In this document: piece after piece, positions 1 through 36,115 of the stretch
Position numbering within the stretch: position 1 is the stretch's first letter
Layout: each line of letters opens with the position of its first letter
IMG/VR virus record: IMGVR_UViG_3300006226_001703
Span: 1 to 64,000 of that record
Source: a virus
Lineage: Duplodnaviria > Caudoviricetes
Reading direction: 5' to 3' (one strand)
Length of the DNA stretch: 64,000 bases
Notes under the pieces: model-generated
Database searches by the model: none
Seen by the model: only the letters and a program-made list of their open reading frames with translations
Told to the model about the DNA's origin: nothing
Program-made: the position numbers and the translations under genes

Positions 1-306
1 TTAGTCAAACAATTCGCTAAGCCTGTACTCTTCATAATCAATTTCTCTTAGTTCTTTGTCATATGACGGTAAGTTTTTAATTGCATTTGAAGCATTATAT
101 TTACTATATTTGTACTTAATTATTGGTAATTCACGAATATCTACATAATGTAATTCAACTTTAATATCAGCTTCATATTCATTATGATTTTTATTGATTA
201 TTTCATTTGACACTTTTGGATGGTCATACATATCACTAGTAATGAAAGTTGTGCCAATCATTCTTTTAACTACATAATCATAAACTTCTTGGTCATTTAA
301 TTTCAT
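1..306 (-). CDS. hypothetical protein, C-terminus ...SELFD
   Basis: 101-aa ORF in a tightly packed - strand run; stop at 1-3. Confidence 0.7.
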   Translation of the reverse strand: MKLNDQEVYDYVVKRMIGTTFITSDMYDHPKVSNEIINKNHNEYEADIKVELHYVDIRELPIIKYKYSKYNASNAIKNLPSYDKELREIDYEEYRLSELFD

Positions 307-488
307 TCGAATAACTCATAATTATCAAACCATTTGTTCGTCTTAAAGATGAGCTCATTTCCAATATAATAATAAAGAAAAGCATCATCAACTTCAATTC
401 GTTCATTAGATTTTAGATAATATTGCTTTTTGTTTTGAGGTTTCATTATATTCTCATAAGTTGCCCTAACGGACATTTTAGTCATCAT
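303..488 (-). CDS. hypothetical protein, C-terminus ...YELFE
   Basis: 61-aa ORF with 4-bp overlap to neighbour. Confidence 0.6.
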   Translation of the reverse strand: MMTKMSVRATYENIMKPQNKKQYYLKSNERIEVDDAFLYYYIGNELIFKTNKWFDNYELFE

Positions 489-708
489 ATAATTCAGAAC
501 TCTCTTCTTCTAATTCAGCTTCAAGAATATCCAACATTCTGTGATACTTACCAACGGCATCTCTATATGAAACATCTTTTGGCCTAATGCCATATCCTTC
601 ATGAGGCCCATAATTGAGATAGCTAATTGGGCTATTATAGATGTTTTCAACCTTTCTAATTTCTGATAAGATTTCTAACTGTTTTTCAGTTCTTTCAATA
701 ATAGCCAT
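478..708 (-). CDS. hypothetical protein
   Basis: 76-aa ORF, start/stop overlaps with neighbours. Confidence 0.65.
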   Translation of the reverse strand: MAIIERTEKQLEILSEIRKVENIYNSPISYLNYGPHEGYGIRPKDVSYRDAVGKYHRMLDILEAELEEESSELYDD

Positions 709-1571
709 TAGTCGCCAACCTTTGAATAATCTTCATTTAACAATTCACTTGGACTAAAAGTTTCAGGTCTCATTTCTTGTGTGATATCCTCTTTGTTCAA
801 TACAATAACTGGAATGCCATATTGAAAAGTTCCAGGGAGTGGGCACATATTATTGTCGTTCTTGACTACTTCTTTCAAGTTTGAGACTATCTTCTTAACC
901 CCATCTATCACAATAGCTGGGTTCATCTTGTAAACTTCTTTACGAATTAGACAATGAATACCACCAACAGTTTTAACGAAGATGACATTTCCTAATCCAA
1001 ATAATGAATGAAAATACTCTCTTAAGCATCTATAGATATGAATATCAAATGCACCATCAATATCAATGTCAAAATCAATCCATGCCTTTTCGCCAAAGTT
1101 ACGAGCAAATAATGACTGACAAGTATCAAATGATTTTCTCACTTTATAGTAAGCTTGTTCAATTCCGCCTTGTGAGTTTTTGAGAGCACTATCTGTTAGC
1201 GTAGTCATTATTTCAGTTAAGTGATTCATTTGGTCTTTCATTGCAGCATAACAATCAATTGGGCAAATATTCCAATAACAAACAAGCGCACTATTTATGA
1301 AACTTTCAGCTTCGTGGGGAAAATAACTATCAACCCTAACTTCCATTCTACGGATATGTTTAACGAATGATTCCCAGCCTTGATGCCTAATTTGTGTTTT
1401 GTTCCACATTTCATTATGAGGAAGAATCTTTCTCTGTTCTGGGTCTAATCTTTTCTTTCGAAGGGACATTGAGACAAAATAGATTTCATTTGGTTTAAGT
1501 GATGGGACGACATATTTGTACCACCATTTAAGTTCTGCTTCATCAGCAATAACTTTTATGTACTCAGGCAT
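708..1571 (-). CDS. hypothetical protein, possible AEP/primase-polymerase-like fold
   Basis: WIDFDID followed by KTVGGIH resembles AEP motifs I and II; unverified. Confidence 0.35.
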   Translation of the reverse strand: MPEYIKVIADEAELKWWYKYVVPSLKPNEIYFVSMSLRKKRLDPEQRKILPHNEMWNKTQIRHQGWESFVKHIRRMEVRVDSYFPHEAESFINSALVCYWNICPIDCYAAMKDQMNHLTEIMTTLTDSALKNSQGGIEQAYYKVRKSFDTCQSLFARNFGEKAWIDFDIDIDGAFDIHIYRCLREYFHSLFGLGNVIFVKTVGGIHCLIRKEVYKMNPAIVIDGVKKIVSNLKEVVKNDNNMCPLPGTFQYGIPVIVLNKEDITQEMRPETFSPSELLNEDYSKVGD

Positions 1572-1572
1572 A

Positions 1573-2106
1573 TTAGTACTCCTCTTCGAATTTTATAGAG
1601 CCAATCTGTTCAGCATTGATGCTCTGTTCCTCCACTTCGACTTCGGGTTTTGGCCTATTCTTAAGATTAGGCATTTTTCTTCTTATCTGTTTTTCTGCTA
1701 TTTTCAATGCACTATAATATGCTCTACCAATAGCATCAATTTCTTCTGGTTTTAATGTGTTCATTCTCACAATACTGATGGCTTCATTTAGAAAGTAATT
1801 CATCAGTGCCGGGGATATCATATAGTCTTCATACAAGTTCTGTGCAATTTCTGGGCTATATTTTTCTTGTCTCACTTGCTGAATACAATCTTGAAGAATT
1901 AGAAAATACATTTCATTTGGAATGCTGCTTAATTGAAAAATTGGGTCTTTCCAAATTTTCTCATTTCCTCCAAGCAGTTTATATAACATATTATCATAAG
2001 ATTCAAATTCCTCATGTGGAAGTTGCAACTTTTTAAGTTCATCTTTTGCTTCAGGGTAAGTTATGCTCTTGTCAATAGCCGCAGCTAATATGTCCTTAAG
2101 CTTCAT
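1573..2106 (-). CDS. hypothetical protein
   Basis: 177-aa ORF, operon packing. Confidence 0.7.
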   Translation of the reverse strand: MKLKDILAAAIDKSITYPEAKDELKKLQLPHEEFESYDNMLYKLLGGNEKIWKDPIFQLSSIPNEMYFLILQDCIQQVRQEKYSPEIAQNLYEDYMISPALMNYFLNEAISIVRMNTLKPEEIDAIGRAYYSALKIAEKQIRRKMPNLKNRPKPEVEVEEQSINAEQIGSIKFEEEY

Positions 2107-2425
2107 ATAAATTAGTAGTCCTTCCTATGATTTCGTCATCATCAAATAAATCCCAAGGATCAACTATTACTTCTTTTGCGAATTTGTCAGGGTCCATACC
2201 AATTATTTCAGACCAATGTTGAATGAACTTTTCTCTGTCATCTTGATAAGCCATTCTAAATGGCACCTTTTCAATTTTGTTATGTACTGGGTTACCAACA
2301 CATTCAGTTCTGTTCATTAAAAGATGACCATACTTATCACACCATTTTAATCCGGCACCATTCACTGGATCCATCTTAATGAGCTGATTATTATAATGAG
2401 CACATCTTTTATCACATTTTTCCAT
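2096..2425 (-). CDS. hypothetical protein (Cys/His N-terminus)
   Basis: 109-aa ORF, operon packing. Confidence 0.65.
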   Translation of the reverse strand: MEKCDKRCAHYNNQLIKMDPVNGAGLKWCDKYGHLLMNRTECVGNPVHNKIEKVPFRMAYQDDREKFIQHWSEIIGMDPDKFAKEVIVDPWDLFDDDEIIGRTTNLYEA

Positions 2426-2892
2426 TAGTCAAATAACTCCCAATCATCTCCAAGTTCATCCATCAGTCTTTGGAAAAACTCTGTCGTATCACCAAACCGT
2501 TTGAAACTTTTGATGCTATATCCCTTTTCTAATTTTGATAACATCTGTTCAAAAAAGTTCCCCTCAGCATATCTAGCAATATCATATTTCTTACTTTGAG
2601 GTTTAGCCCCAATTCTTCCCCATTGAGCTGTAAAAGTTTTCCCGTTACGAATTGTGTCAGCCTCAGTTTGAGAAAGGATGTAGAATTTGTTGTGATTTTT
2701 TGCTTTGTCAACACATTCTAAAACTACCTTTTCAACCTTTTCGTGTACAAATGAGACATTTCTTAACTGAGCAAACTCTTCTGGAATTGCTCTTTCAACT
2801 TTTACCATATCAATACTCCTAAGTTTGGCTTTTATAGTTACTGTTCTAAATATGGGGATCAGTGTTCCACAAACTATCCGTACGTCGTCCAT
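2425..2892 (-). CDS. WGR-domain protein
   Basis: NKFYILSQ...FTAQWGRIG...KLEKGY matches the WGR domain pattern; ends ...WELFD. Confidence 0.75.
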   Translation of the reverse strand: MDDVRIVCGTLIPIFRTVTIKAKLRSIDMVKVERAIPEEFAQLRNVSFVHEKVEKVVLECVDKAKNHNKFYILSQTEADTIRNGKTFTAQWGRIGAKPQSKKYDIARYAEGNFFEQMLSKLEKGYSIKSFKRFGDTTEFFQRLMDELGDDWELFD

Positions 2893-3382
2893 TGATTAGT
2901 AGATTAACTTCCAATGAGAAAGGTTCATTCAACATATCAATAGCCTTCTGTTTAGTTGGTTCAGTTAGTCCCACTTGGTTCGGTGTCCAAACGTGCCAAG
3001 GTTTCAACATCTCCATATCGTCATCATCATCTAAAATACAAAGTCCAGTTACAGTATGCCTTTTCAAGATGTACTGCTCTTTGAATATCCAATGGAATAT
3101 CTCATAACCACGAGCAATTCTTAAAATTGGAGTCGCCCCAATACAGACTGGCTCAATTCCAACGGCTTCAAAAAACATATCAATTCCAACCCAGTTACAA
3201 TTAAAGTCTTGTCTCCAAGTTGAAGACAAGACTATTTTGCAATCAGTTGCTGCTATGATTTCGTTTAATAGCTTAACTTTTTCTGGCATCAAATCGTAAG
3301 TCCGATTAGTCATACCTGGTCGTCTGTTGTCAGAACAGTTCAACACACCATCGATGTCGAGCGCTAAGATTTTTGTTGACAT
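2846..3382 (-). CDS. HAD-family phosphatase (Swiss-army-knife RNA repair-like HAD_SAK)
   Basis: LDIDGVLN, IVLSSTWR, ILDDDDDM motifs; adjacent to RNA ligase. Confidence 0.8.
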   Translation of the reverse strand: MSTKILALDIDGVLNCSDNRRPGMTNRTYDLMPEKVKLLNEIIAATDCKIVLSSTWRQDFNCNWVGIDMFFEAVGIEPVCIGATPILRIARGYEIFHWIFKEQYILKRHTVTGLCILDDDDDMEMLKPWHVWTPNQVGLTEPTKQKAIDMLNEPFSLEVNLLINGRRTDSLWNTDPHI

Positions 3383-4614
3383 AATTTCTCCATTTGTTCA
3401 TAATCAAGTTTAGCTAAAAACTTGTTTTTAATCGTTTCACTATCAGTTCCCTTATACACTTCGAAATAAAGTTTTGCTAATGGCTTATCTTTCACAGCCA
3501 AAGCGAAAGTCTTTTTATTAGCAGCCGCATCATTTGTGCTTTGTGCAAACAGCTTAATCGAATAAGCATCTGCCAAAGTTTCGTGCACTAACGTTTCAAC
3601 TGTCTTGTACTTTTCAACAACCTTATCAATTATTTCAGCATATTCTGGGAATATTCCCATCACATCGTCTATTGTTCCAGCCTGAATGCACTTCAAAAGA
3701 TGCTCAACAGAAAGCTGGCCATTATTGTCTTTCATACGATGAATTGACAGATACTGCTCGCTCTTAACTTTCACTCGATTAAAGTGCTCATCTTGAATTA
3801 TAATGCCCTCATGATTTGAATCGAGCGATGCAACTATTTCAACAACTTCGTCAAGTGATTTTGCTGTCAACTCATAAACTTTTGGAGTCTTGAATTGTGG
3901 AAAGTTTTCATGTTCAGCAAGAAACTCTTCAATGTTTATTTCGTTCTGTGAGTTGTTATCTCTTATTCCAATTAAAGTTAACTCAGTTTCTTTATAAGGA
4001 ACAACAATTCTATTGTAAGGCGAAGTCAACTCAAAAATGAAAGTTGCAGCTGTTCCAAACATTTGCATTATGCTTTTTTCTTCCTTAGTGAAATTATCCA
4101 TTGCTAAATCAATTAGGTCCTTAAACGTATCAATTCCATCAACGAAGTCATTTAAATCACATGGAAGATTAGCATCAGCATTAAAGCCATTATTCGTCAT
4201 CCACAAGTCTTCACCATTTTCAACAGTATACTTGATTATTGAGCCATCTAACTTTTCACGAGCAAAAATCTTTCCATTCCAGTCAATAGCTGCAGCATTA
4301 CCTTCGCCATAATTGAAAAACTTGTCAAAAGCTCTTGCCACTATTTTAGTCATAAAAATAGGACGAAAGATTTCATCACCAGAAAAATCCCATCTTTCTA
4401 ATCTCGTATCAAGCACATCAATCACAATACCCCGAGCTATTTTCACTATTTCATCACTCATTAAAGAATGAATCATATCGTATGTGAAAATATAGCGATG
4501 TTTAATTGTTGGGTGTTGTCTGATTTTAAGATTATATGGGTCTGACGAAAGACGATCATGCCAATCGTCAGGATATTTTTCGATAAAATCTTGTAATTTG
4601 TTAGTTATTCTCAT
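3364..4614 (-). CDS. RNA ligase, T4 Rnl1-like
   Basis: REKLDGS (motif I), FELTSPYNRIVV, EGII, RVKVKS nucleotidyltransferase motifs. Confidence 0.85.
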   Translation of the reverse strand: MRITNKLQDFIEKYPDDWHDRLSSDPYNLKIRQHPTIKHRYIFTYDMIHSLMSDEIVKIARGIVIDVLDTRLERWDFSGDEIFRPIFMTKIVARAFDKFFNYGEGNAAAIDWNGKIFAREKLDGSIIKYTVENGEDLWMTNNGFNADANLPCDLNDFVDGIDTFKDLIDLAMDNFTKEEKSIMQMFGTAATFIFELTSPYNRIVVPYKETELTLIGIRDNNSQNEINIEEFLAEHENFPQFKTPKVYELTAKSLDEVVEIVASLDSNHEGIIIQDEHFNRVKVKSEQYLSIHRMKDNNGQLSVEHLLKCIQAGTIDDVMGIFPEYAEIIDKVVEKYKTVETLVHETLADAYSIKLFAQSTNDAAANKKTFALAVKDKPLAKLYFEVYKGTDSETIKNKFLAKLDYEQMEKLCQQKS

Positions 4615-4631
4615 ATTTGTTATATAAGAAC

Positions 4632-5102
4632 TTATATGTAATTGTTCAACTGTTCTAATAGTTGTTTTCGATATTCTGGTGTTATGCCCTTTGGTAAATT
4701 GTTTTCAGTAAATCTATCAATCACATTATAGATAATCTCAGCAAACAGTTTCTCACCATTTCCTTCTTTATATTCTGTTTTTAGATAGCCATCAATGAGG
4801 CCGGAAGTTTTGTGGTTGATATTTTCTCTGTTGAATGAAAGAGTCCAAAAAGCATGGTTGGCTGGCCCATCTAACCAAAAAGTTCCATTATAAACAAGCA
4901 CCATTTTATCGAACTGTTTGTAATATTCAATAAAGTCATCTAAACAATAGCCAATTGAATCTCTGTTCGTTATGATCTTGAAGTCCAATATGTTTTGTGC
5001 TATTTGATAAGCTGTTGCTAAGGGCTCATCTGTGTGTGGCATTTTAATGATGTTTTGTGCGTCATGAATAAATATGCACCATTTCATCTTACTCTCCTCC
5101 AA
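4632..5102 (-). CDS. hypothetical protein
   Basis: 156-aa ORF with GGAG RBS. Confidence 0.7.
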   Translation of the reverse strand: MEESKMKWCIFIHDAQNIIKMPHTDEPLATAYQIAQNILDFKIITNRDSIGYCLDDFIEYYKQFDKMVLVYNGTFWLDGPANHAFWTLSFNRENINHKTSGLIDGYLKTEYKEGNGEKLFAEIIYNVIDRFTENNLPKGITPEYRKQLLEQLNNYI

Positions 5103-5277
5103 TCTTAATTATGAACTTTCCATTTTCTTCTTTTAATTGTAGATCTAAATCTCTAATTGTCCAATTCTTTTGTCTTACCATTACCTTTGCGAGTTCATCC
5201 GCTAGCATTCTTTTATCTTGTAATGCTAAAATTCCAGCTAAAGTCTCAATAGCGTCCTGACTCTCATAAGTTTTCAT
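5089..5277 (-). CDS. hypothetical protein
   Basis: 62-aa ORF, AAGGAG upstream. Confidence 0.6.
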   Translation of the reverse strand: MKTYESQDAIETLAGILALQDKRMLADELAKVMVRQKNWTIRDLDLQLKEENGKFIIKIGGE

Positions 5278-5307
5278 TGAATTGTTTTATTCTCCTTTGA
5301 ATATAAA

Positions 5308-5556
5308 TTAACTATCCCTCATTGGGTTCACTAAGATTAGTAGTACAGCAAACTCTGCATGATGATCAGATTTAGCCCATGATGTTGTGTTGTTATTACC
5401 AGCATAACCATTTGCAAATCCGTATGCAACTCCTCTCATTTGATGTACTTCTTTTATTTCCCAACCGCTTGTAAAAAGGGCGTTTAATTCATTTTCATTA
5501 GTTTTCCAGTTTCCGCCATCCCAAAAAGAATGTAAGATATATGCCTTAGTTTTCAT
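5308..5556 (-). CDS. hypothetical protein
   Basis: 82-aa ORF, operon packing. Confidence 0.6.
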   Translation of the reverse strand: MKTKAYILHSFWDGGNWKTNENELNALFTSGWEIKEVHQMRGVAYGFANGYAGNNNTTSWAKSDHHAEFAVLLILVNPMRDS

Positions 5557-5989
5557 TTTTCATATCCCATGGAATCATATTAACTACCTCATAATACAAT
5601 TCCTCATCGAAGGCGCCATCTTCCACTAATCCATTTAGAATATGAAGCATTGCTTCATCACCTAATTCTTTGTGAAGAAGAACCCATCTCGCTTTTTCCA
5701 TTGCTGCTAAATTGAGACACATCTCAGAAAAGTCATCTGAATTCTCTTTGATATTTTCTTGAGCATTATCAACTTGAGCGAGAATTGTGAAACAGTTTTT
5801 GATAGTTTTTTCCAAAGTCTTCTGTCTCTTTTTTGCTTGTTTCATTAAGAATTTGTTTATAGCATTCACAGCTAATTCCATTTGTTCGGGTGTTCTATTT
5901 TCAATTTGTTCCTCAGTCCAACCAGAATTACGAAGTAACTCTAAAATGTAAGCTTCTGATTTTTCGTCATTCCAAGTTACTATATTCAT
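5546..5989 (-). CDS. hypothetical protein
   Basis: 147-aa ORF. Confidence 0.7.
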   Translation of the reverse strand: MNIVTWNDEKSEAYILELLRNSGWTEEQIENRTPEQMELAVNAINKFLMKQAKKRQKTLEKTIKNCFTILAQVDNAQENIKENSDDFSEMCLNLAAMEKARWVLLHKELGDEAMLHILNGLVEDGAFDEELYYEVVNMIPWDMKNEN

Positions 5990-5998
5990 TTAATATCC

Positions 5999-6190
5999 TT
6001 AATCAAATAATTCATGACAATTACATTGTTTTCTATTAAGTGAATCTATTTGTTTTTTCATTTCAGTTAACACATCTAAAACATCATGTTCAAATTCATT
6101 TCGTCCGGGTGGACGAATTGAAAGCATATATTTCATGTGGTCAAGACATCTTTCTATATTATCTTTCATATTATCCTTCAAGTGAGGCAA
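5999..6190 (-). CDS. hypothetical protein, C-terminus ...CNCHELFD
   Basis: 63-aa ORF. Confidence 0.6.
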   Translation of the reverse strand: MPHLKDNMKDNIERCLDHMKYMLSIRPPGRNEFEHDVLDVLTEMKKQIDSLNRKQCNCHELFD

Positions 6191-6956
6191 CTAACTCAGA
6201 ATAGTTCATATCCGCCCCATGCTTTTTAGAAGTTGACTGAATGATGAGATCAAGTTGCCCATTTATTCTGTCAAGATTTTCTTTGAGAATTCTACCATTG
6301 ATTTGAAGTGTACTCATAATTTCTCTGTTCTTTTTTCCTTGAACTTTCATATTTAAGAGCTGCTTTTCTTTTTGTGATAATTTGTTTTTCAAGATGTCAA
6401 AAGATTCCCAAAGAATAGTTTGACTTTTTGATATGTGAAGATTATGATCTACTAAATCTCCATGTCTAGCGATTTCTTTGTCAAGATTAGAGAAAGTTTC
6501 ATTATTCTCATTTGAGATAAAAATTGGAGTTGTGTTATTTTTCCAATCAAACCATCTCTTGAGAATGTTTCTGTTCATTGATCTCCAATATCCCCAAAGA
6601 CGAATATAAATAGACCAGTTTGGAAGATGTTCTACATCCTCTAAACGAACTCCTGGCATCTGTTTTATAAATTCCTGCCATGCTTCTGAGTCATATTCTT
6701 CAATATCCTCTTGCATGTAGATATTATTTCGTTGACAAAGTGCGATAAGTTGATGTTTCATTTTCATACGAAGTTTGAAATACTTATCCCATAATTCGTA
6801 TGCTGCAAGATTTGCTTTATTCTGATGAGCAAGTTTAGTCTCTTTTTTGAGAGCCTTTGATGCTTTTAAAGTGTACTCTTGCCATTGAGAAACAAGTTCT
6901 CTATCAGTCCTAAATTCTTTGCCAGTTGATTCTCTTACCTTCTTAGGTCTTCCCAT
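6171..6956 (-). CDS. putative phage RNA polymerase sigma factor-like protein
   Basis: C-terminal LSQKEKQLLNMKVQGKKNREIMSTLQIN resembles the sigma-70 region 4 HTH; size typical of ECF/SigH-type factors. Confidence 0.55.
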   Translation of the reverse strand: MGRPKKVRESTGKEFRTDRELVSQWQEYTLKASKALKKETKLAHQNKANLAAYELWDKYFKLRMKMKHQLIALCQRNNIYMQEDIEEYDSEAWQEFIKQMPGVRLEDVEHLPNWSIYIRLWGYWRSMNRNILKRWFDWKNNTTPIFISNENNETFSNLDKEIARHGDLVDHNLHISKSQTILWESFDILKNKLSQKEKQLLNMKVQGKKNREIMSTLQINGRILKENLDRINGQLDLIIQSTSKKHGADMNYSELVASLEG

Positions 6957-7272
6957 TTAGAATAGCCTCCTCAGCTTTCTTCATTTTTGTAAATCTTTCG
7001 ATCCAACTTTTCTTTTCTTTTTGGTTTAATTCTTCACTATTAGTAATATCATCAACCCAAAAAGAATACCAATCTGGATTATTATTATGTTGTTCTATTA
7101 AATCATCAGTAAAATCATAATTTTCAACATAATTTTCTGCTGCTTCTAAAGAACAAAATTTCTTTACTGGACTACTATGACTCTTTTTTAATTGACCTTT
7201 TTCTGGATTCTTTTTTGATGGATTCCATGTCCAATAAAAACCAAATTTATCCTCAATATAACATCCTGCCAT
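6943..7272 (-). CDS. hypothetical protein
   Basis: 109-aa ORF, AAGGAG RBS. Confidence 0.7.
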   Translation of the reverse strand: MAGCYIEDKFGFYWTWNPSKKNPEKGQLKKSHSSPVKKFCSLEAAENYVENYDFTDDLIEQHNNNPDWYSFWVDDITNSEELNQKEKKSWIERFTKMKKAEEAILNGKT

Positions 7273-7304
7273 TTTTATCTCCTTAATATATAATATAAGA
7301 AAAT

Positions 7305-7658
7305 TTAATCTGGGAGTTCATACTCATCTTCTATTTCTTTCTGTTTTGCCTCAATGGCTTTCTCGAAGTTTTCTTTTTTCTGTTCTTGTGCTGTTTTCTT
7401 TGGTGGGTTTTTCGCCAATTTTGCTTTGGCAGCTTTTGCTTGTGCTTTCTCTTCTAAGATTTTTCTCTTTTGAGCGCCTTCAACCTTAGCTATTAGATTA
7501 GCTACATACTTGTCATTCATTGTGTCAATGTGAAGAATAGTATGAGCAATATCAAACACGCTATGATTTTTAGCGATATAGTCGATAAACGACTCCTGAT
7601 TTTCTTCCAGCCACTTAACGTTTGCTGGGTCCGTAATGTAGGGATTGCAGATTTTCAT
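7305..7658 (-). CDS. hypothetical protein
   Basis: 117-aa ORF, GGAG RBS. Confidence 0.7.
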   Translation of the reverse strand: MKICNPYITDPANVKWLEENQESFIDYIAKNHSVFDIAHTILHIDTMNDKYVANLIAKVEGAQKRKILEEKAQAKAAKAKLAKNPPKKTAQEQKKENFEKAIEAKQKEIEDEYELPD

Positions 7659-7659
7659 T

Positions 7660-8211
7660 TTAACTCCAATATTTTGCTTGTTCTTTTATTTTCTTAATAT
7701 AATATAAGAAAACGTTAACTTCCATTTTATTTAATATCGTAGTTATCTCACCCTTATAGTAGTTTCCAATTTTTTGGCCCATAAGAGGATGTATGTTTAA
7801 GTTGATTTCTTTGTGTTCATCATAAATTAAATAAATGCCTTTCATATTACTGATAACTTCGTTAATCATTCTCATTTGTAACTTACCAGTAGTTGCATGT
7901 CTAAAATAAGTTTGTTTTTCTCTTGGTTTGTAAGCTAATCCAGATTTCTCACTGTATCTATAATGTTCTAAAACATTGATTAGTTGATTAAGGATTTCTT
8001 CATTTAGAATTAAGCCGAAAAAGTCCCGCTTATCTCCCATTGAGAATTCAAATCTCTCTCTTCTTATTTTAATCCAAAATGAGATTTTCTGCCACAATGA
8101 GAAAGGTTGTTCTTTTTGTAGAAAATGAAGATTATCTTGATTGTCCATCCACAATTCAATAATATGAGAATCTCCACAACAGGCACATTCAATAGTATGT
8201 ATTTTTACCAT
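7660..8211 (-). CDS. hypothetical protein
   Basis: 183-aa ORF. Confidence 0.7.
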   Translation of the reverse strand: MVKIHTIECACCGDSHIIELWMDNQDNLHFLQKEQPFSLWQKISFWIKIRRERFEFSMGDKRDFFGLILNEEILNQLINVLEHYRYSEKSGLAYKPREKQTYFRHATTGKLQMRMINEVISNMKGIYLIYDEHKEINLNIHPLMGQKIGNYYKGEITTILNKMEVNVFLYYIKKIKEQAKYWS

Positions 8212-8229
8212 AATTATATATAAGATTTT

Positions 8230-8682
8230 CTAATCAAATAATTCTGAACTACTCAGAGCTTTCCTTAATCTTTTATTTTCAGCTTCAAGTACTTCTACTT
8301 TCTTTTCTAATTTGTTGCATATTCTGTGAAGTTTATCAACCTCTCCAAAAACTTCTTCCATAACTCTATCTACGTAATGTTCTTGCATTTCTGCAAATAT
8401 ATGTTGAATCACAGCGGCTTTATCCTCATCACCAAACACTTTCATTAAGTCGTCCATCTCTGGAACATATTTTAAGTCATTGAAATTCTTTTTCTTTTTG
8501 CTTTTTTTCGTATCGGCAGGGCCAAAATCTTCGCCATCATCATCTCCTGGACCTATCGCTGTAAGAAGCTGGTCTATCTCATCCTGAGAAAGCACTTCGG
8601 TGAAAACTATTTGATTCTTACTTTTTAGATGACCTAAATCATAGTCTGTGAGGCTATTCAAATCTATCGTTCTTTTATACAT
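8230..8682 (-). CDS. FliM N-terminal (CheY-binding) peptide-bearing protein with C-terminal coiled coil
   Basis: aa 28-43 TEVLSQDEIDQLLTAI match the FliM N-terminal LSQxEIDxLL motif; remainder is not FliM; ends ...SELFD. Confidence 0.8.
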   Translation of the reverse strand: MYKRTIDLNSLTDYDLGHLKSKNQIVFTEVLSQDEIDQLLTAIGPGDDDGEDFGPADTKKSKKKKNFNDLKYVPEMDDLMKVFGDEDKAAVIQHIFAEMQEHYVDRVMEEVFGEVDKLHRICNKLEKKVEVLEAENKRLRKALSSSELFD

Positions 8683-8707
8683 AATAGTTAGTAGCTATAT
8701 TAACCAA

Positions 8708-8733
8708 TAAAAAAGCCCCTCAAATGAGGGGCT
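8708..8733 (-). terminator. Rho-independent terminator after the 8741..9298 gene
   Basis: GCCCCTC/GAGGGGC stem (8715-8732) followed by a T-run on - strand. Confidence 0.75.
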
Positions 8734-8740
8734 GTAGTTT

Positions 8741-9298
8741 TTACTTATCAAATAAGGCTGGATTGCTACTATAATCCTGGTCACTTTGTGTGACTTGGGA
8801 TGTAGCTCCCTTACTTAATTTTGGATTGTGTCCATTTGGCACGCCGTCAGGTTTTGGGCCTGCTGATTTTCCACTGTCATAGTGTCCACCAGGTGGGATG
8901 CCATTTGCCTCTCTAAAAATCTTTTCAAAGAGTTTTGGGTTTGTGTCATAATCTTGTCCACTTTGTGTTACCTGTGATGTTGCACCTTTGCTAAGTGGAG
9001 GATTGTGCCCGGCTGGAACACCATCGTTCTTATTGTCAAGTCCACCTGTCCATTGATTTCCACCATATTTAACATCGGCTTCTCTTAGTCGCTTTTTTGG
9101 TGCTGGTCTTAAATTACCAGACTCGTCGTAAATACTTTCAAAAAGCTTTCTAAATTTTGGGTCGATTAAGTCGTCTACATTCTCGAATAAGTCTTCCCTA
9201 CCCTTGTAGATTTCATTAAAAGACCTACTGTCACCTGAGTCATAAAGTTGAATCGCTTCTTCTCTTAAATGTGTAGGTCTTGCCATCATACCCTCCAA
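8741..9298 (-). CDS. putative head/core protein with internal duplication
   Basis: two copies of GVPxGHNPxLSKGATSQVTQSxQDY; LRE sites. Confidence 0.55.
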   Translation of the reverse strand: MEGMMARPTHLREEAIQLYDSGDSRSFNEIYKGREDLFENVDDLIDPKFRKLFESIYDESGNLRPAPKKRLREADVKYGGNQWTGGLDNKNDGVPAGHNPPLSKGATSQVTQSGQDYDTNPKLFEKIFREANGIPPGGHYDSGKSAGPKPDGVPNGHNPKLSKGATSQVTQSDQDYSSNPALFDK

Positions 9299-10573
9299 TT
9301 AACCTAAAAGGCCTTTTTTCATAGAATTCTTGATACTATCAAAGTTAAGCTTTGGCTCCATGAATTGTTCTACATAAACATCAGTTACAGTTTTAACACT
9401 TTCCTTAACTTTGGTTTGTGTTGCGCCTGCACCTTGTAATGCTCCGCCTGCTTCTTTTCCAGTTGCTTTTGTTGGCCAAGTTTTACCTGGTTTTGTTTCA
9501 CCAGCTGCTCTACCTGAAGAATAACCCCCGGCTAATTGCTGTGGTGATGGAACTGGGATTGGATCTGGGCTAGTTGCATTGTCAGGATTATCTGAATTTG
9601 ATGGAGTTGCCTTTGTTGTTAAAGTTCCCATTTCTGCTGTTGATGGAATATCGAGAAAGCCTTCTTGAAGTGCAGCAATTTTTGCTTGTCTTTCAGCTAT
9701 TCTTGATTTGATTTCTTCATACTTAGAAAGTTTCTGTTTTGGAGCTCTCTTTGCAGCTTCTTCTTTGAGCATTGTGAATTCAGCTTCAGTTAGTTTGCTT
9801 GTTCCTTTGTTCTCTTGTTTCCACTGTTTGTAGTTGTTGATCATTTCCATCATTGGTGCTCCGCCCATTGCTGCTGGGTCTCCGCCTGCCATTGCTGGGT
9901 CAGGTGGCATACCATCTACAGGAGGTTGTCCTGCCATTGGGTCAGCACCCATTGGGTTTGCGCCTGCTTGTGTGAATGGTTGTAATGCAGCTGCTGCTTG
10001 TTCGATTGCGCCTTGCATTGCCATTGGGTCAGCTGCTGGGTCCATACCACCAGCCATTGCATTTGGATCAGCACCCATTGCGTTAGGATCCATTCCGCCT
10101 GCCATTGCATTTGGGTCACCTGCCATTGGGGCACCACCCATTGCTGCTGGGTCAAAACCTGCATCTGCTTCTCGAAGTCGTATGCCATTCTGTGTTGCTT
10201 CATTAAAGTTTTCTTTGAGCATTTTGATTTCTTTATAAGTTATCTTTGCTCCAGGTCCTTCAACTGCCTCTTTGAACTTCTTGTAGTTGCTAATATAAAC
10301 GTCAATTCCGTTTTCTGTTTTAGCTGGCTTAAGAGACTCTTTGATTCTCTGAAGTTCTTTTTCTGTTAGCTTGTCAGTTCCTTTGTTAGCTTTCTTCCAT
10401 TTACGATATTCGTTCACGCGTTCTTTTAATTGACTGTTGTTGGAAGTTTTGCCGCCTTGGGCTCTGAATTGTTCTCTCAAGTTAGCGAGTTCATCTTTCG
10501 TTAACTTGCCGTTGCCTTTTTCTGTGAGTTTCCATGCAGAATACTCACGTACTAAGTCTACAAATGTTTTCAT
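9299..10573 (-). CDS. putative prohead core/scaffold-like protein
   Basis: MKTF start, many L/I-x-E sites, DPxAMxG repeats, repeated YKxWK...KLTE segments; divergent from terminase. Confidence 0.45.
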   Translation of the reverse strand: MKTFVDLVREYSAWKLTEKGNGKLTKDELANLREQFRAQGGKTSNNSQLKERVNEYRKWKKANKGTDKLTEKELQRIKESLKPAKTENGIDVYISNYKKFKEAVEGPGAKITYKEIKMLKENFNEATQNGIRLREADAGFDPAAMGGAPMAGDPNAMAGGMDPNAMGADPNAMAGGMDPAADPMAMQGAIEQAAAALQPFTQAGANPMGADPMAGQPPVDGMPPDPAMAGGDPAAMGGAPMMEMINNYKQWKQENKGTSKLTEAEFTMLKEEAAKRAPKQKLSKYEEIKSRIAERQAKIAALQEGFLDIPSTAEMGTLTTKATPSNSDNPDNATSPDPIPVPSPQQLAGGYSSGRAAGETKPGKTWPTKATGKEAGGALQGAGATQTKVKESVKTVTDVYVEQFMEPKLNFDSIKNSMKKGLLG

Positions 10574-18709: not shown

Positions 18710-18964
18710 TTAGTCATCTTTTCTTTCGGAAGGAGAAAAAACTTTAGTTACCCTAATTCCATAGTTCTCGTCAATACTTACGACTTCACCTTCTGCGTAC
18801 TTAACGTTATTCACATAAACTGTAACAGGCTCGTCAGCATTTTTATCCAATTCGACAATAGTACCCACGCCAAATTGAAGGATATCTTTCACATTCTTTT
18901 TTACTGAGCCCAACCTTGCTGTTAGTTCAACGTTAACATTCTGTATGTTTTGATAATTATCCAT
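18710..18964 (-). CDS. fliN: FliN/FliY C-terminal (SpoA/FliMN_C) domain protein
   Basis: VELTARLG..KKNVKDILQFGVGTIVELDKNADEPVTVYVNNVKYAEGEVVSIDENYGIRVT is a textbook FliN domain. Confidence 0.9.
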   Translation of the reverse strand: MDNYQNIQNVNVELTARLGSVKKNVKDILQFGVGTIVELDKNADEPVTVYVNNVKYAEGEVVSIDENYGIRVTKVFSPSERKDD

Positions 18965-29122: not shown

Positions 29123-29470
29123 TTAATCCAATAAATGTAAAAAATTAGCTCGTAAGTCTTGCCATTCCTTTTTATTTAATAAGCTTCCCAATATATGTAA
29201 AGTCATTCTTGGGTTATTTCCTTTTTGAATTGATAGCACTGCTTCCTTTTTAATTTCGTCAAGCTCACTGTTTATCAAAGGTTTTAATATCTTCTTAACA
29301 TCTTTACTATCAGTTCCATCAATAACAAATCTCAAACCATACCAAAAAATATCTCTATTGTTTACTTCTTCAACATGTTCGTTAGTTTCATCCTCCAAAG
29401 CCAAGAGCCCCTCTCGTCTTGCCTTTTCCGATAGACTTAAAGCCTTAATAATAAAATTTATCTTTTCCAT
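29123..29470 (-). CDS. soluble MotA/PomA cytoplasmic-domain-like protein (no TM helices)
   Basis: SEKARREGLLALED...GLRFVIDG joined directly to AVLSIQKGNNPR, which in MotA are the cytoplasmic loop and C-terminal tail. Confidence 0.8.
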   Translation of the reverse strand: MEKINFIIKALSLSEKARREGLLALEDETNEHVEEVNNRDIFWYGLRFVIDGTDSKDVKKILKPLINSELDEIKKEAVLSIQKGNNPRMTLHILGSLLNKKEWQDLRANFLHLLD

Positions 29471-32673: not shown

Positions 32674-33057
32674 CTACCTTGTTATTAGATTAACTATTGG
32701 CTCATACAAGCCACCAGTGAATTGTAACGCAAATATGATTCCACCAAACATTGTAGTAGCCACAACATTATAGTTTGAGACTTGAACTTTATGTGGATTA
32801 TTTCCAGCATAGACATGATAACAGAGACTGATAAAAGTTAGAATATGCAGAATGTTCATCTGCCAGCAGAATGCGTTGAAGTCAGAATCAACTGACATCA
32901 CGATCATCGCAACAATCCAAATAATCGTTGACAATGATGTCCAATACGGAGAACCTCCGGGCTTCATTTGCCGTCCATGTTTTGCTGCTGAAACTAATAT
33001 GCCCTTCAAAAGCATAAAACCAAAATAGATACTAAAAATGAGCTGAAGCGTAGTCAT
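32674..33057 (-). CDS. membrane protein
   Basis: about four hydrophobic segments. Confidence 0.65.
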   Translation of the reverse strand: MTTLQLIFSIYFGFMLLKGILVSAAKHGRQMKPGGSPYWTSLSTIIWIVAMIVMSVDSDFNAFCWQMNILHILTFISLCYHVYAGNNPHKVQVSNYNVVATTMFGGIIFALQFTGGLYEPIVNLITR

Positions 33058-33084
33058 TTATTTCCTCCTATTTAAATTAACTTT

Positions 33085-33102
33085 GGGCTGCCGAAGCAGC
33101 CC
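33085..33102 (-). terminator. cUUCGg-loop terminator hairpin
   Basis: - strand GGGCTGC TTCG GCAGCCC, perfect 7-bp stem. Confidence 0.7.
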
Positions 33103-33126
33103 TAATTATTTCCGTTTAATTCTCAA

Positions 33127-33447
33127 TTATGCAAGAAGGTCCCTTTCCTTGCCATTAGTCTTCTCAATGGCAGCCTGGATGGTACCGGGGAACGCCGTCA
33201 TAAAATGAGTTGCGGCGTTAAAAGCGTTTTCTCTCCGCTTTCCCTTGATTACGACATCAAGAATCTGGTCATTATCTGACCGGAGAATTGATGCCTCAGT
33301 AGCGAGGCCAAAAGGCAAAGTGCGAATTGCGTTATGCATATCCGTGAAGCCATTCTGTGGCCTGTCAATCTTAATAGTTACTGTAGTCATATCTTGTCTC
33401 CCTTTAACTTGATAATAATATATAAGATGGGCAGAAATAGTGTTCAA
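33127..33447 (-). CDS. hypothetical early protein (true start probably ATG at 33390)
   Basis: class I promoter and GGGAGA RBS lie just upstream of the MTTVTIK start; more GC-rich than neighbours. Confidence 0.65.
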   Translation of the reverse strand: MNTISAHLIYYYQVKGRQDMTTVTIKIDRPQNGFTDMHNAIRTLPFGLATEASILRSDNDQILDVVIKGKRRENAFNAATHFMTAFPGTIQAAIEKTNGKERDLLA

Positions 33448-33449
33448 AA
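33397..33449 (-). promoter_or_regulatory. class I promoter/RBS block, second copy
   Basis: identical 34-bp core to 13878-13911. Confidence 0.7.
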
Positions 33450-33503
33450 TCTAAGTTTGTACTAAATAATAAGAAACAGCAATATGTTAAAGGAGATGCA
33501 AAT

Positions 33504-34112
33504 ATGCTTGCTACCAGTTTTTCAGCGAAGTTCTGGAAAGACAAATTTCAATCAAAATTCGTAAACTTTTGTAAGAAGTCACCCGTACTACTCTCTATGA
33601 TTATGAAAATTCAAGGGGGAGAAGAAGGTGTTCTAATTACACATGTCAACTCAAACTCTAAATACTTTTTTCCATTTAACTATGACCAAGACCCGAAAGA
33701 CTTCATAGCTGATATTAAGAAATTATTGGTGGAAAAACACTACCCAAGAATAATGGAAGAGATTTTAGATAAACATCAATTCTCTACTGATGAATTAGCC
33801 CTCAAAGTTGAAAAGGGAGAATCATTAGACAACCTTGCTAAATATGAAATGAGAGTTGTGGGAACTAGAATGTATCGAATTGATAAGATTCTAGCTTGGA
33901 AAAATATCGCCATTTTAACTTTGGAAGAAAGTTCTTTTGATGAGGATAAACTTAACTCAAATTATAGATATAAATATAATGGCGGAAGTTTAGTGATATT
34001 TTTGAAGAATTATAGAAGTGGAAAGTTTAAGTCACTTGAAAGTGCGTCTGAACATTTCTTGTCAAATAGTTTATTGATAGATGAAATTGTTAAAAAAGGA
34101 GAAGACGATTAA
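33504..34112 (+). CDS. hypothetical protein
   Basis: 202-aa ORF, ACTAAATA motif at 33461 and AAGGAG RBS. Confidence 0.7.
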   Translation: MLATSFSAKFWKDKFQSKFVNFCKKSPVLLSMIMKIQGGEEGVLITHVNSNSKYFFPFNYDQDPKDFIADIKKLLVEKHYPRIMEEILDKHQFSTDELALKVEKGESLDNLAKYEMRVVGTRMYRIDKILAWKNIAILTLEESSFDEDKLNSNYRYKYNGGSLVIFLKNYRSGKFKSLESASEHFLSNSLLIDEIVKKGEDD

Positions 34113-34396
34113 TGCCAGTTCTTAAAGTTAAAGACCCATACTTAATTGTTCTTGATGAACATACTGATGATAATTGGGTTTTTCAAACTAAAACAGATAC
34201 ACAAGGTGGATGTTGTTGGCATGCTTATATGCATAAAGATGAAGACAAATTTTCAGGCTGGTCAAGAAGAGTTGACTGTAATATGAGACCTGGCTACATT
34301 AGAATTATTGCAACAAAAGAAAATTATGAAGATAGCAACCAAATAATTTATACATTATTTGAAAATACGATTAAAAAAGGATATCATAAATTATGA
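34112..34396 (+). CDS. hypothetical protein
   Basis: 94-aa ORF, coupled start. Confidence 0.65.
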   Translation: MPVLKVKDPYLIVLDEHTDDNWVFQTKTDTQGGCCWHAYMHKDEDKFSGWSRRVDCNMRPGYIRIIATKENYEDSNQIIYTLFENTIKKGYHKL

Positions 34397-34722
34397 AAAT
34401 CTTTATATCACAGGGGATGAAAGATAAGACCCCAGAAGAAATTAAAACAGAAATAAATAAAGGAATTGACTACATTAAAAGTCTCTTTCCAGAAGATAAT
34501 GTCGAAATACTTAGTACTTACTTTGAAGATTTTGAACCAGAAGCAGCAAAAGGAAGTCCACAATATCGAATTGCTTTCTTAGGTAAATCAGTTATTGAAG
34601 GACTTGCTAAATGTCACATTGCTTTATTCTTAGGTGAATGGGAACAATTTATTGGTTGTCAATGTGAACATTTTATTGCTCAAAGATATGGAATCCCAAT
34701 ATTCTTTTTTAAGGATTTGTAG
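34393..34722 (+). CDS. DUF4406/nucleoside deoxyribosyltransferase-like protein
   Basis: MKIFISQGM...GCQCEHFIAQRYGIPI pattern. Confidence 0.5.
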   Translation: MKIFISQGMKDKTPEEIKTEINKGIDYIKSLFPEDNVEILSTYFEDFEPEAAKGSPQYRIAFLGKSVIEGLAKCHIALFLGEWEQFIGCQCEHFIAQRYGIPIFFFKDL

Positions 34723-36115
34723 GAGCTTGTTCTTCAGGTAAAGCTGACACATCAAAATAAGCACCATTAAATAGTCCCTTGGCAGTTTTACCAATTCTTC
34801 CATTACTTATTTTAACAGCTTGAACTTCAATGATATCTAACAGTGTATCATATTGGTCAGGCTGTAAATAAAGTTCAGCATACATTTTTTCTCTAAAAGT
34901 CGTTAACACATATCTTGATCTTTCAACCCAAGCAGATGCATTTTTGATCTGTGCTCTATTTGGACGAAATCGTTGCAAATCTTTTACATCATGACATTTA
35001 ACATCTGATTCAGTTGTTCTATTTAATTGTAATACACCAATTATATGTACACCAAGTTCTTTTGCTATTGCAGATAATTTGTTCATTCCCAATTCGACAC
35101 TTTGAGCGAAATTAGTACCACCAGAAACTTTAGTGAAGTCAGAAACCATCGATAACAAGTCAAGAACAACTATACAGTAACGTTGTCCCATTTCAGACTG
35201 GAATTTCTTGATATATTTTCTTAATTCATTTAAAGTCATGCTTGCATCTTCTGAGAATCTAAAAGTCTTATTTTTAGATAAATGTAATTTTTCTTTTTCA
35301 AGCATATCACATATATCTTCAAATTGCCCTTGCTCTCTTGGGTTTATAATATCAGAATAAAGAATCTCTAATCTCTTGGACATTAATCTATCCATTGTTG
35401 CAATTGATGACATCTCTAAACTGAAATACATGCTTGGAATTTGAGCTTCAATTAATGAGTTGATTAAGTTTAATGAGAGTGTGCTTTTACCAGAACCGGA
35501 TGATGAAGCAATTATTCCAATTTCTCCAGGTCGAGGTCCATCAGGAATAAGCTCGTCAAATATGAAATTATAGAAATAGAATTGTTTTCCTTTTTTACGA
35601 AGGTTTAATTCCTTATTATATTGTTCTGCCCATTCTTCAAAGTCCATAACTTTTTTAATTGAATGGTCTTCCAAAAATAATTCTTCTTCACCAGCTCCAA
35701 TTAAATCTTTAATATCAATTATGTTATGTTCATTTAAGTGAGTTTGTTCTTCTATTTTTAGTGCTGCTGCTTTTAAGTTGGCTGCTGCTTTTCTTCTCTT
35801 TTTAGCATCCTGTAATTGTTTTACGATATCTTTTATTGATGTTAGAGGTTGATTTTGTTTTGCTGTAATTATATCAATAACATTAGGTGAGCCATCTATA
35901 TCTATTTTCGCATATTCTTGTAATAATGCATCTCTTGTGAAAGGAATTGAATGCTCTTTTAGATATTGAACTGCTTTATAAACGTTACGAGTTGCTGATG
36001 AAGAAAAAATCCCATCATCAATACTTGGGTCCTCTAAAAACTCAGGCTGATAAAATAACGTCTGTAAAAGCCTTCTCTCTGTAAAATTATCTACATCTGA
36101 TTTCTTTTCTGCCAT
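34709..36115 (-). CDS. dnaB: replicative DNA helicase (DnaB/gp41-like)
   Basis: GEIGIIASSSGSGKST Walker A, YFSLEMS, VVLD, QLNR. Confidence 0.9.
   Translation of the reverse strand: MAEKKSDVDNFTERRLLQTLFYQPEFLEDPSIDDGIFSSSATRNVYKAVQYLKEHSIPFTRDALLQEYAKIDIDGSPNVIDIITAKQNQPLTSIKDIVKQLQDAKKRRKAAANLKAAALKIEEQTHLNEHNIIDIKDLIGAGEEELFLEDHSIKKVMDFEEWAEQYNKELNLRKKGKQFYFYNFIFDELIPDGPRPGEIGIIASSSGSGKSTLSLNLINSLIEAQIPSMYFSLEMSSIATMDRLMSKRLEILYSDIINPREQGQFEDICDMLEKEKLHLSKNKTFRFSEDASMTLNELRKYIKKFQSEMGQRYCIVVLDLLSMVSDFTKVSGGTNFAQSVELGMNKLSAIAKELGVHIIGVLQLNRTTESDVKCHDVKDLQRFRPNRAQIKNASAWVERSRYVLTTFREKMYAELYLQPDQYDTLLDIIEVQAVKISNGRIGKTAKGLFNGAYFDVSALPEEQAPTNP

Follow-up and report, generated by a model that had tools for sequence, protein, structure and literature searches.

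A jumbo phage of probable Treponema hosts encodes a conserved free-standing mimic of the FliM N-terminus, a candidate decoy for CheY3-P

Introduction

The FliY protein of Bacillus-type motors combines a docking peptide with a CheC-like phosphatase and a FliN domain, and CheZ carries a C-terminal CheY-binding peptide. In CheY 'phosphate sink' schemes, such as those with the extra CheY proteins of alpha-proteobacteria, phosphate is drained from CheA. On the viral side, Pseudomonas phages encode inhibitors of the type IV pilus ATPase PilB.

The closest described counterpart of the protein presented here is the N-terminus of FliM (FliM-N), which carries the 'EIDAL' motif and is the docking site of CheY3-P in spirochaetes. 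In Borrelia, the binding of CheY3-P to FliM-N on the C-ring has been seen in situ; cells without cheY3 run constantly and cells without cheX flex constantly (10.1101/2020.05.18.101634). CheY-P binding by FliM-N peptides is weak in E. coli, where K91, Y106 and the basic residue 119 of CheY are the contacts for D3 and D12 of FliM-N (10.1101/781468). In some bacteria the FliM or FliY N-terminus is also the docking site of FlhG (PMC12826062). The jumbo-phage reviews and comparative papers that we consulted are silent on FliM, CheY and any genes for chemotaxis or motility, and we found no published precedent for a gene of the kind described below.

Phage context of the gene

The window, by which we mean the whole stretch of 64,000 nucleotides that was analysed, is part of an 86.6-kb IMG/VR virus record (G000), which is labelled 'provirus' and has a CheckV completeness of ~26%. 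The window derives from the genome of a jumbo phage. Its phage genes include a GroEL (phrog_5725, E 4e-104), a DnaB-type helicase and a tail/baseplate-like protein, and its 751-aa terminase-like protein is 68-78% identical to proteins on three IMG/VR contigs of 329 kb (complete, with direct terminal repeats), 261 kb and 68 kb. The 329-kb relative (IMGVR_UViG_3300010167_000010, here G001) carries P0136, an orthologue of the protein under study, P0001. A protein identical to P0001 was also called on a 183-kb ENA contig. The GC content of the gene (0.347) is close to that of the window (0.345), and a tblastn search against 50,697 GenBank phage records returned zero matches to it. The gene and the signals ahead of it are as follows.

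8230..8682, minus strand: gene of the putative FliM-N decoy (P0001, 150 aa, stop codon included), from the ORF list and translation
8685-8692, minus strand: promoter-like motif ACTAACTA, 2 nt ahead of the ATG
8696-8704, minus strand: promoter-like motif GTTAATATA, 13 nt ahead of the ATG
8714..8733, minus strand: terminator-like hairpin between the upstream gene and the P0001 gene, with 8 pairs, 6 of them G-C, then the T-run TTTTTATT

The original prediction of an upstream terminator and of promoter-like motifs belonging to the gene itself held up, as the hairpin (8733-8714) and GTTAATATA are both present and both conserved in front of the orthologue P0136 in the 329-kb phage. The general form of the latter motif, GTTAAT[ACT]TA, has 19 sites in the 86.6-kb record, 17 of them on the minus strand, and at 15 of the 19 an ORF start follows 5-27 nt on, often without a Shine-Dalgarno sequence in between. 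Judging from this placement, GTTAAT[ACT]TA is a candidate phage promoter class. It also stands ahead of a FliN gene and of a gene for a WGR-domain protein, both described below. Examples are:

window 2908, 8704, 16823, 18978, 36902, 40958 and 46632, minus strand: GTTAAT[ACT]TA sites

The geometry of the second motif, ACTAAYTA placed 2 nt before the ATG, is common to the P0001, MotA-like and tail-like genes. ACTAANTA was found at 25 sites (window 8692, 29480, 20531, 49553, 41449 and 20 more). Five of these lie 2-3 nt before an ATG, in front of the P0001 gene, the MotA-like gene, a tail-like gene (20541) and two more genes; at the remaining sites a ribosome-binding-like sequence comes after the motif. 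We take ACTAANTA to resemble the T4 late-promoter word TATAAATA.

Two neighbouring ORFs gave no family match. The conserved upstream neighbour (window 8741-9298, minus strand) contains two copies of a ~35-aa motif (DGVP.GHNP.LSKGATSQVTQS..DY..NP.LF[ED]K) and ends in ...LFDK. The ORF beyond it (window 9299-10573, minus strand) has a low-complexity core rich in Pro, Ala, Met and Gly.

Similarity to the FliM N-terminus

Translation of 8230-8682 gave residues 28-47 (encoded by 8542-8601), the GEDFGPADTKK that comes next and the C-terminal LEKKVEVLEAENKRLRKAL as they had been read originally. Two segments of P0001 are related to FliM.

8554..8601, minus strand: exact copy of FliM residues 2-17 (the CheY-P/FlhG docking helix) at P0001 residues 28-43, 16/16 identity, modelled as a helix at 33-42
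8410..8601, minus strand: entire FliM-homologous segment, P0001 residues 28-91 against FliM 2-54 with an 8-residue insert, by hhalign

Searching longer proteins with P0001 residues 18-60 gave 709 matches, and all 120 among the matches listed are FliM proteins (PF02154 and PF01052). Wherever these 120 of 709 have a name, it is Treponema, Treponemataceae, Breznakiella or Spirochaetia. Each of the 120 listed (of 709) contains the 16-mer TEVLSQDEIDQLLTAI, straight after the initiator Met or, in a few, after a basic 20-aa extension. Among 185,579 prokaryote species genomes (one genome per species) 494 loci were confirmed, the best 80 of which are full-length fliM genes of Treponema/Spirochaetales. 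Most of these 80 are identical to the P0001 peptide at 16/16 positions, and a few (e.g. L044, L054, L077) have E in place of D at FliM residue 8. The names of many metagenome-assembled genomes (MAGs) among them suggest termite or animal guts. The original prediction had made its case depend on whether the closest relatives of the peptide are FliM N-termini, and this is what both searches returned. The match of P0001 to FliM is far beyond chance, and Treponema spirochaetes are the probable hosts of the giant phage.

The FliM-derived part had been put at 20 residues, which is too short. Aligning the profile of the P0001 family with a Treponema FliM profile (hhalign, probability 98.6%, E 4.7e-16) gave 53 columns, in which family columns 27-82 correspond to FliM 2-54, and profile matches to FliM across Spirochaetia genomes extend to profile positions ~90-100. 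P0001 therefore keeps three elements of FliM, namely its docking helix, its acidic linker and, in much diverged form, its first conserved stretch (KIKIYDFKRPDKFSKEQ region).

Nothing of the FliM body follows. The FliM middle domain PF02154, which holds the FliG-binding GGXG loop, is absent from P0001 even at E 0.1 and was not found anywhere in the 86.6-kb record, and the FliM profile alignment ends at residue 54. P0001 has no C-terminal SpoA/FliN-type domain (PF01052) either; the only PF01052 match of the record is a separate 84-aa gene at 18710-18964. A Pfam scan of P0001 found no FliM and no FliMN_C domain, which agrees with the earlier statement that the rest of the 150-aa protein lacks a FliM middle or SpoA domain. 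By its domain content P0001 is a FliM-N-only derivative and not a FliM.

No gene of this type was found in cellular genomes, where the best 80 of the 494 loci are all full-length fliM. In 301 Spirochaetia genomes, all matches listed (150 of 243) are likewise full-length fliM and none is of the P0001 type.

An internal position of the docking peptide occurs naturally, as in FliM proteins with a 20-aa extension (P0003, P0065, P0075) and in P0251, which has a FliN domain and carries the peptide at residues 83-98. The three extended proteins are cellular-type metagenome FliM of 445-462 aa, ~100 aa above the usual length, and their extension ahead of the docking peptide is highly basic. We also considered the leader of P0001 (residues 1-27) as a degenerate second copy of the motif and ruled this out, with only 2/13 positions matching by eye and a regex scan finding one motif.

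Protein architecture

AlphaFold2, run on the family alignment, gave a model with a mean pLDDT of 68.8 and a pTM of 0.32. It consists of small leader helices, the docking helix at 33-42, disorder at 44-70 and a single long helix at 86-149 with pLDDT values up to 95.

8473..8553, minus strand: disordered linker, acidic and then basic, residues 44-70 (pLDDT <50; composition from the translation)
8236..8427, minus strand: long C-terminal helix, coiled-coil candidate, residues 86-149 (DSSP; pLDDT 83-95 over residues 101-140)

The best heptad register of the long helix has 10 hydrophobic a/d positions, and Pfam gave weak, sub-threshold matches of leucine-zipper type on residues 113-147 (bZIP_1, TSC22, HALZ). 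On the predicted model, oligomerisation through this helix is plausible. A bZIP/leucine-zipper transcription factor was rejected, with bZIP_1 scoring 18.2 bits against a cut-off of 27.6 and with the lysine patch at residues 59-65 lying ~50 residues ahead of the zipper-like part instead of contiguous with it. P0001 has no hydrophobic segment and matches no known fold. A PDB sequence search with P0001 returned designed helical proteins and TACC3 only, and the ESM Atlas gave zero feature matches and structure matches that all had a TM <0.5. Pfam and PHROGs searches of P0001 and its neighbours found nothing beyond the sub-threshold coiled-coil matches.

Motifs of the FliM-N type are also present in two or three tandem copies in small metagenome proteins (P0157, P0203, P0241). 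By their sequence these tandem-motif proteins look built for capture, and multivalent binding would fit them. P0157 (L104 725-1042) lies on a short contig adjoining a PemK toxin gene, and its context may therefore be cellular or plasmid instead of phage. A second family of ~249 aa (P0250, P0254, P0258, P0259, P0243) starts with a FliM-N peptide, continues with a Cys-rich domain and ends in ...GDLLFDEWK. One member is found in a Treponema MAG (L103 349-1098) beside WYL, DNA-ligase and kinase genes. The copy of this family in the 329-kb phage (L107 1468-2466, G001) is 46% identical and has a degenerate motif.

Gene family and selection

Small homologues, 105-150 aa long, came up in exhaustive and word-based searches (P0002, P0123, P0129, P0136, P0148, P0149, P0150, P0151). 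The family comprises at least nine phage or metagenome homologues with a common layout of short leader, FliM N-terminus, disordered charged linker, long helix and C-terminal LF[DE]. P0001 has all the features that define this FliM-N/coiled-coil/LFD family (length ~110-150 aa), as seen from the nine-member alignment, further members and the structure model. Four members are located on large phage contigs (68-329 kb), where the genes around them are conserved: one for an upstream protein sharing an N-terminal block and one for a downstream CxxC protein. The orthologue P0136 of the 329-kb phage has the same neighbouring genes, is 36% identical to P0001 over the aligned part and, like some FliM of Treponema, carries E where P0001 has D at FliM position 8.

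Members of the nine-sequence alignment share 28-34% identity with P0001. No column of this alignment is invariant other than the initiator Met, E29-I43 (not 34 and 41) and L148-F149. Between homologues, 8-12 of the 16 codons of the motif differ synonymously, with 0-2 amino-acid replacements. The closest homologue pair that we compared at the DNA level, P0002 and P0149 (67% identity), has a pS of 0.82 and a pN of 0.21, and outside the motif a pS of 0.87 and a pN of 0.23. With synonymous sites saturated and invariance confined to the docking helix and the LF end, the family indicates long-term purifying selection and not a recent scrap of a gene. The P0001 gene is thus an old, fully domesticated phage gene with a docking helix fixed by selection. 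The match of the peptide to FliM, the missing FliM body, the invariance of the peptide and the saturated synonymous sites together suggest that the docking function is what selection preserves.

Residues 65-101 of P0001 (window 8380-8490) weakly resemble a ~37-aa repeat of long repeat proteins (P0124-P0138). The best E of 7.5e-10 is summed over several repeats, the likeness is present in P0001 alone of the family, and the repeat has no Pfam family. The 1599-aa match P0124 was considered as the window's own 1599-aa ORF, but they are different proteins.

Proposed function

We consider it highly probable that P0001 mimics FliM-N functionally and acts on one or another of the partners of FliM-N. 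That it is more specifically a CheY-P-binding decoy is our main reading, to which, working from sequence, we give a probability of about 0.5. P0001 would be a soluble cytoplasmic protein with an exposed amphipathic helix, a disordered tether and a long helix that probably pairs as a coiled coil. As an exact and exposed copy of the natural ligand, it should bind the CheY3-P of the host and compete with the motor. In a Treponema-type host, P0001 and the C-ring FliM subunits would be competing for phosphorylated CheY3. As a CheY-P-binding protein, P0001 would be expected to contact the alpha4-beta5-alpha5 face of CheY in a phosphorylation-dependent way. Less CheY3-P at the motors would leave them in their default state. 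The infected cell would then run continuously and lose its chemotactic reversals, by analogy with the Borrelia cheY3 mutants.

The partner expected from this reading is present in Breznakiella homolactica, a cultured termite-gut relative of Treponema. It has the same FliM N-terminus (L045) and a CheY3 orthologue (L100, 145 aa, E 2e-48 to Borrelia CheY-3, 3hzh) that keeps, by eye, K91, Y106 and the basic residue 119. E29 and D37 of the phage peptide may be the matching acidic residues for these contacts. The weak affinity of FliM-N implies that a stoichiometric sponge needs high expression or abundance.

In this light, P0001 looks like a known docking module that a virus has redeployed as a free-standing mimic. 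Should it indeed bind CheY3-P, P0001 would be the first interceptor of a bacterial chemotaxis signal known to be encoded by a virus, and phages would manipulate where and how an infected cell swims, beyond its metabolism and defence. It would also offer a natural, genetically encodable clamp on CheY-P activity in spirochaetes, useful for the question of how the motors at the two poles are coordinated.

The C-terminal LF[DE] tag

Besides the docking helix, the family has a second invariant element at its C-terminus, and the same ending is found on other ORFs of the lineage.

8233..8244, minus strand: ELFD-COOH tag, L148 and F149 invariant in the family (alignment)
window 1-306, 303-488, 2425-2892, 5999-6169 and 8230-8682, minus strand: ORFs ending in LF[DE]
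G000 77471-77866: sixth LF[DE]-ending ORF of the record
G001, e.g. 712-996, 144105-144335, 224987-225229, 320902-321282 and 326329-326694: LF[DE]-ending ORFs of the 329-kb relative

The tag thus ends six ORFs of the 86.6-kb record, including five minus-strand ORFs within window 1-8682, and 20 ORFs of the complete 329-kb relative. These 20 are all on one strand, and 9 of them are within 10 kb of the genome ends. LFD is the commonest C-terminal tripeptide of this phage (18 among 674 ORFs, with 6 for the next commonest). The tagged proteins are mostly small and, apart from orthologous pairs, mutually unrelated; one is a WGR-domain protein. The codons of the tag vary synonymously. Its presence on many unrelated proteins makes the tail a lineage-wide short motif, which may be a docking handle, a degron or a sorting signal. 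A literature search for an 'LFD' C-terminal motif returned only the RAD51-binding LFDE module found in the BRC repeats of BRCA2. The spread of the ELFD tag across the phage hints that giant phages may use a signal for sorting or degradation that has so far gone unrecognised.

The tag suggests a second partner for P0001, and this counts against a plain decoy. A tag common to the lineage makes an adaptor possible, so that the stoichiometric sponge is not the sole reading. In such an adaptor the FliM-N head would capture CheY3-P, and the LFD tag and coiled coil would dock on a hub common to the LFD-tagged phage proteins, for example an unfoldase or protease or some other phage assembly, so that CheY is destroyed, relocated or modified catalytically. 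The invariance of the LF[DE] terminus within the family speaks for this, as does the rank of LFD as the commonest C-terminal tripeptide of the lineage on otherwise unrelated proteins with synonymously variable codons. The weak affinity between CheY-P and FliM-N would favour a catalytic mode, and the window has AAA+ proteins with weak protease-like PHROG matches. The receptor of the tag is only hypothetical, however, and it is just as possible that the tag serves as a degron for its own protein, or as a signal for packaging or timing, without any bearing on a captured partner. We regard the adaptor as a serious rival of the plain decoy, with a fairly low probability. Of the CheY-P sponge proposed originally, the docking peptide preserved by selection stands, but a purely stoichiometric action is no longer the only reading, since the LFD tag allows an adaptor.

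A broader version, which we consider speculative and unlikely, would place the tag in a modular system of effectors that giant phages of spirochaetes use. Varied target-binding heads (the FliM-N mimic here, the WGR domain elsewhere and many unknown heads) would share an ELFD-COOH handle that delivers captured targets to one shared phage or host machine, e.g. for degradation. If true, this would be a bacterial-virus counterpart of the adaptor strategy of eukaryotic viruses.

Other motor-like genes of the phage lineage

Two further genes of the window resemble parts of the flagellar motor and are not part of the P0001 gene.

18710..18964, minus strand: stand-alone 84-aa FliN/SpoA domain (PF01052, E 3.7e-25), preceded by GTTAATCTA
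29123..29470, minus strand: 115-aa MotA cytoplasmic domain without transmembrane helices, corresponding to MotA 77-140 of 8ucs and 6ysf

The MotA-like protein matches with a whole-sequence E of 1e-8 (best stretch E ~1e-5) and a weak additional match to the C-terminal tail of MotA, and its gene is present in this record only, among five searched. A stand-alone FliN accompanies the P0001-type gene in all four related phage records, at a distance of 10-13 kb. The 329-kb phage also has a gene of FliG type, a FliM-FliN fusion of 465 aa whose own docking peptide differs slightly, and a protein of 332 aa in which the docking motif is degenerate. On contig L116 the P0001-type gene lies ~700 bp from a phage FliM-FliN gene. 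The phage genes for FliG-type proteins and for FliM-FliN fusions with full FliM middle domains are located at G001 32884-34771 (L011 370-1767), L008 5300-7272 (G004) and L116 5391-6701. The 35-aa N-terminal extension of the G001 fusion resembles a degenerate second docking motif.

No Response_reg domain was found in the 86.6-kb record, and in the 329-kb relative only a hybrid kinase has one. A phage that supplies its own CheY for the peptide is therefore disfavoured, with no stand-alone Response_reg gene in either.

The phage FliN, the MotA fragment and the FliG and FliM-FliN of relatives suggest that the proposed decoy is one piece of a wider motor takeover, in which P0001 would work beside FliN, the MotA cytoplasmic fragment and, in relatives, FliG and FliM-FliN. 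Together these genes point to a complete viral programme of flagellar motor takeover. If the motor is already put out of action by the MotA and FliN mimics, a CheY sponge would duplicate part of their effect.

The same genes bear on the idea of a motor-resident element, in which P0001 joins the phage FliN (or the FliM-FliN and FliG of relatives) or the host C-ring and adds or modifies docking sites for CheY on a switch remodelled by the phage, instead of acting free in the cytoplasm. It would account for the joint presence of the P0001-type gene and the stand-alone FliN in all four related phage records, for the GTTAAT[AC]TA upstream motif that both genes have in common, for the short distance to FliM-FliN on L116, for the FliG and FliM-FliN of the complete relative and for FliM homology that continues beyond the peptide to residue 54. 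But P0001 lacks the FliM middle and SpoA domains, no part of it is known to bind FliN or FliG, and co-occurrence may be mere synteny within one phage lineage. We find this idea improbable.

Other readings of the docking peptide

The second known user of the peptide is FlhG, a MinD-like ATPase that binds FliM/N through the FliM N-terminus in polar flagellates and through FliY in B. subtilis (PMC12826062; EIDAL-motif papers). P0001 might titrate FlhG, which uses this N-terminus in C-ring assembly, and so disturb the number or assembly of new periplasmic flagella. Binding of FlhG to spirochaete FliM-N is not documented in the papers that we consulted, however, stopping new assembly would probably be of little value within one lytic cycle, and proteins with several copies of the motif better suit the capture of a signalling protein. 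An FlhG trap is very improbable, and of the two partners CheY3-P is the more likely target.

An inert remnant, i.e. a captured 5' scrap of a fliM gene that stays open by chance, has a possible source in the whole fliM-type genes of lineage phages but is hardly credible given an architecture kept in at least nine diverged homologues, a pN far below pS also outside the motif, a conserved terminator and promoter-like motif, and a docking helix that is invariant despite saturated synonymous sites.

Comparison with known systems

The proposed CheY3-P decoy can be set against four described systems. Compared with FliM-N, P0001 is identical over FliM 2-17 and homologous over 2-54, and in the predicted model it has the same layout of a helix on a flexible tether. 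It differs from FliM in the absence of the FliG-binding middle domain and SpoA, in the internal position of the peptide after a 27-aa leader and in being phage-encoded, with a coiled-coil-type helix and the LFD tag in place of the FliM body.

In FliY and CheZ, as in P0001, a CheY-P docking peptide serves as a portable module outside FliM. The peptides of FliY and CheZ are joined to a phosphatase or ring domain, whereas no catalytic or ring domain is detectable in P0001. The predicted outcome is the same as that of the CheY phosphate sinks, namely less CheY-P acting on the motor, but P0001 is viral and would bind the activated regulator itself. Like the PilB inhibitors of Pseudomonas phages, P0001 is a small phage protein directed, in our reading, against the motility apparatus of the host. 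The PilB inhibitors, however, target pili and not flagellar signalling, and they are not mimics of a host docking peptide.
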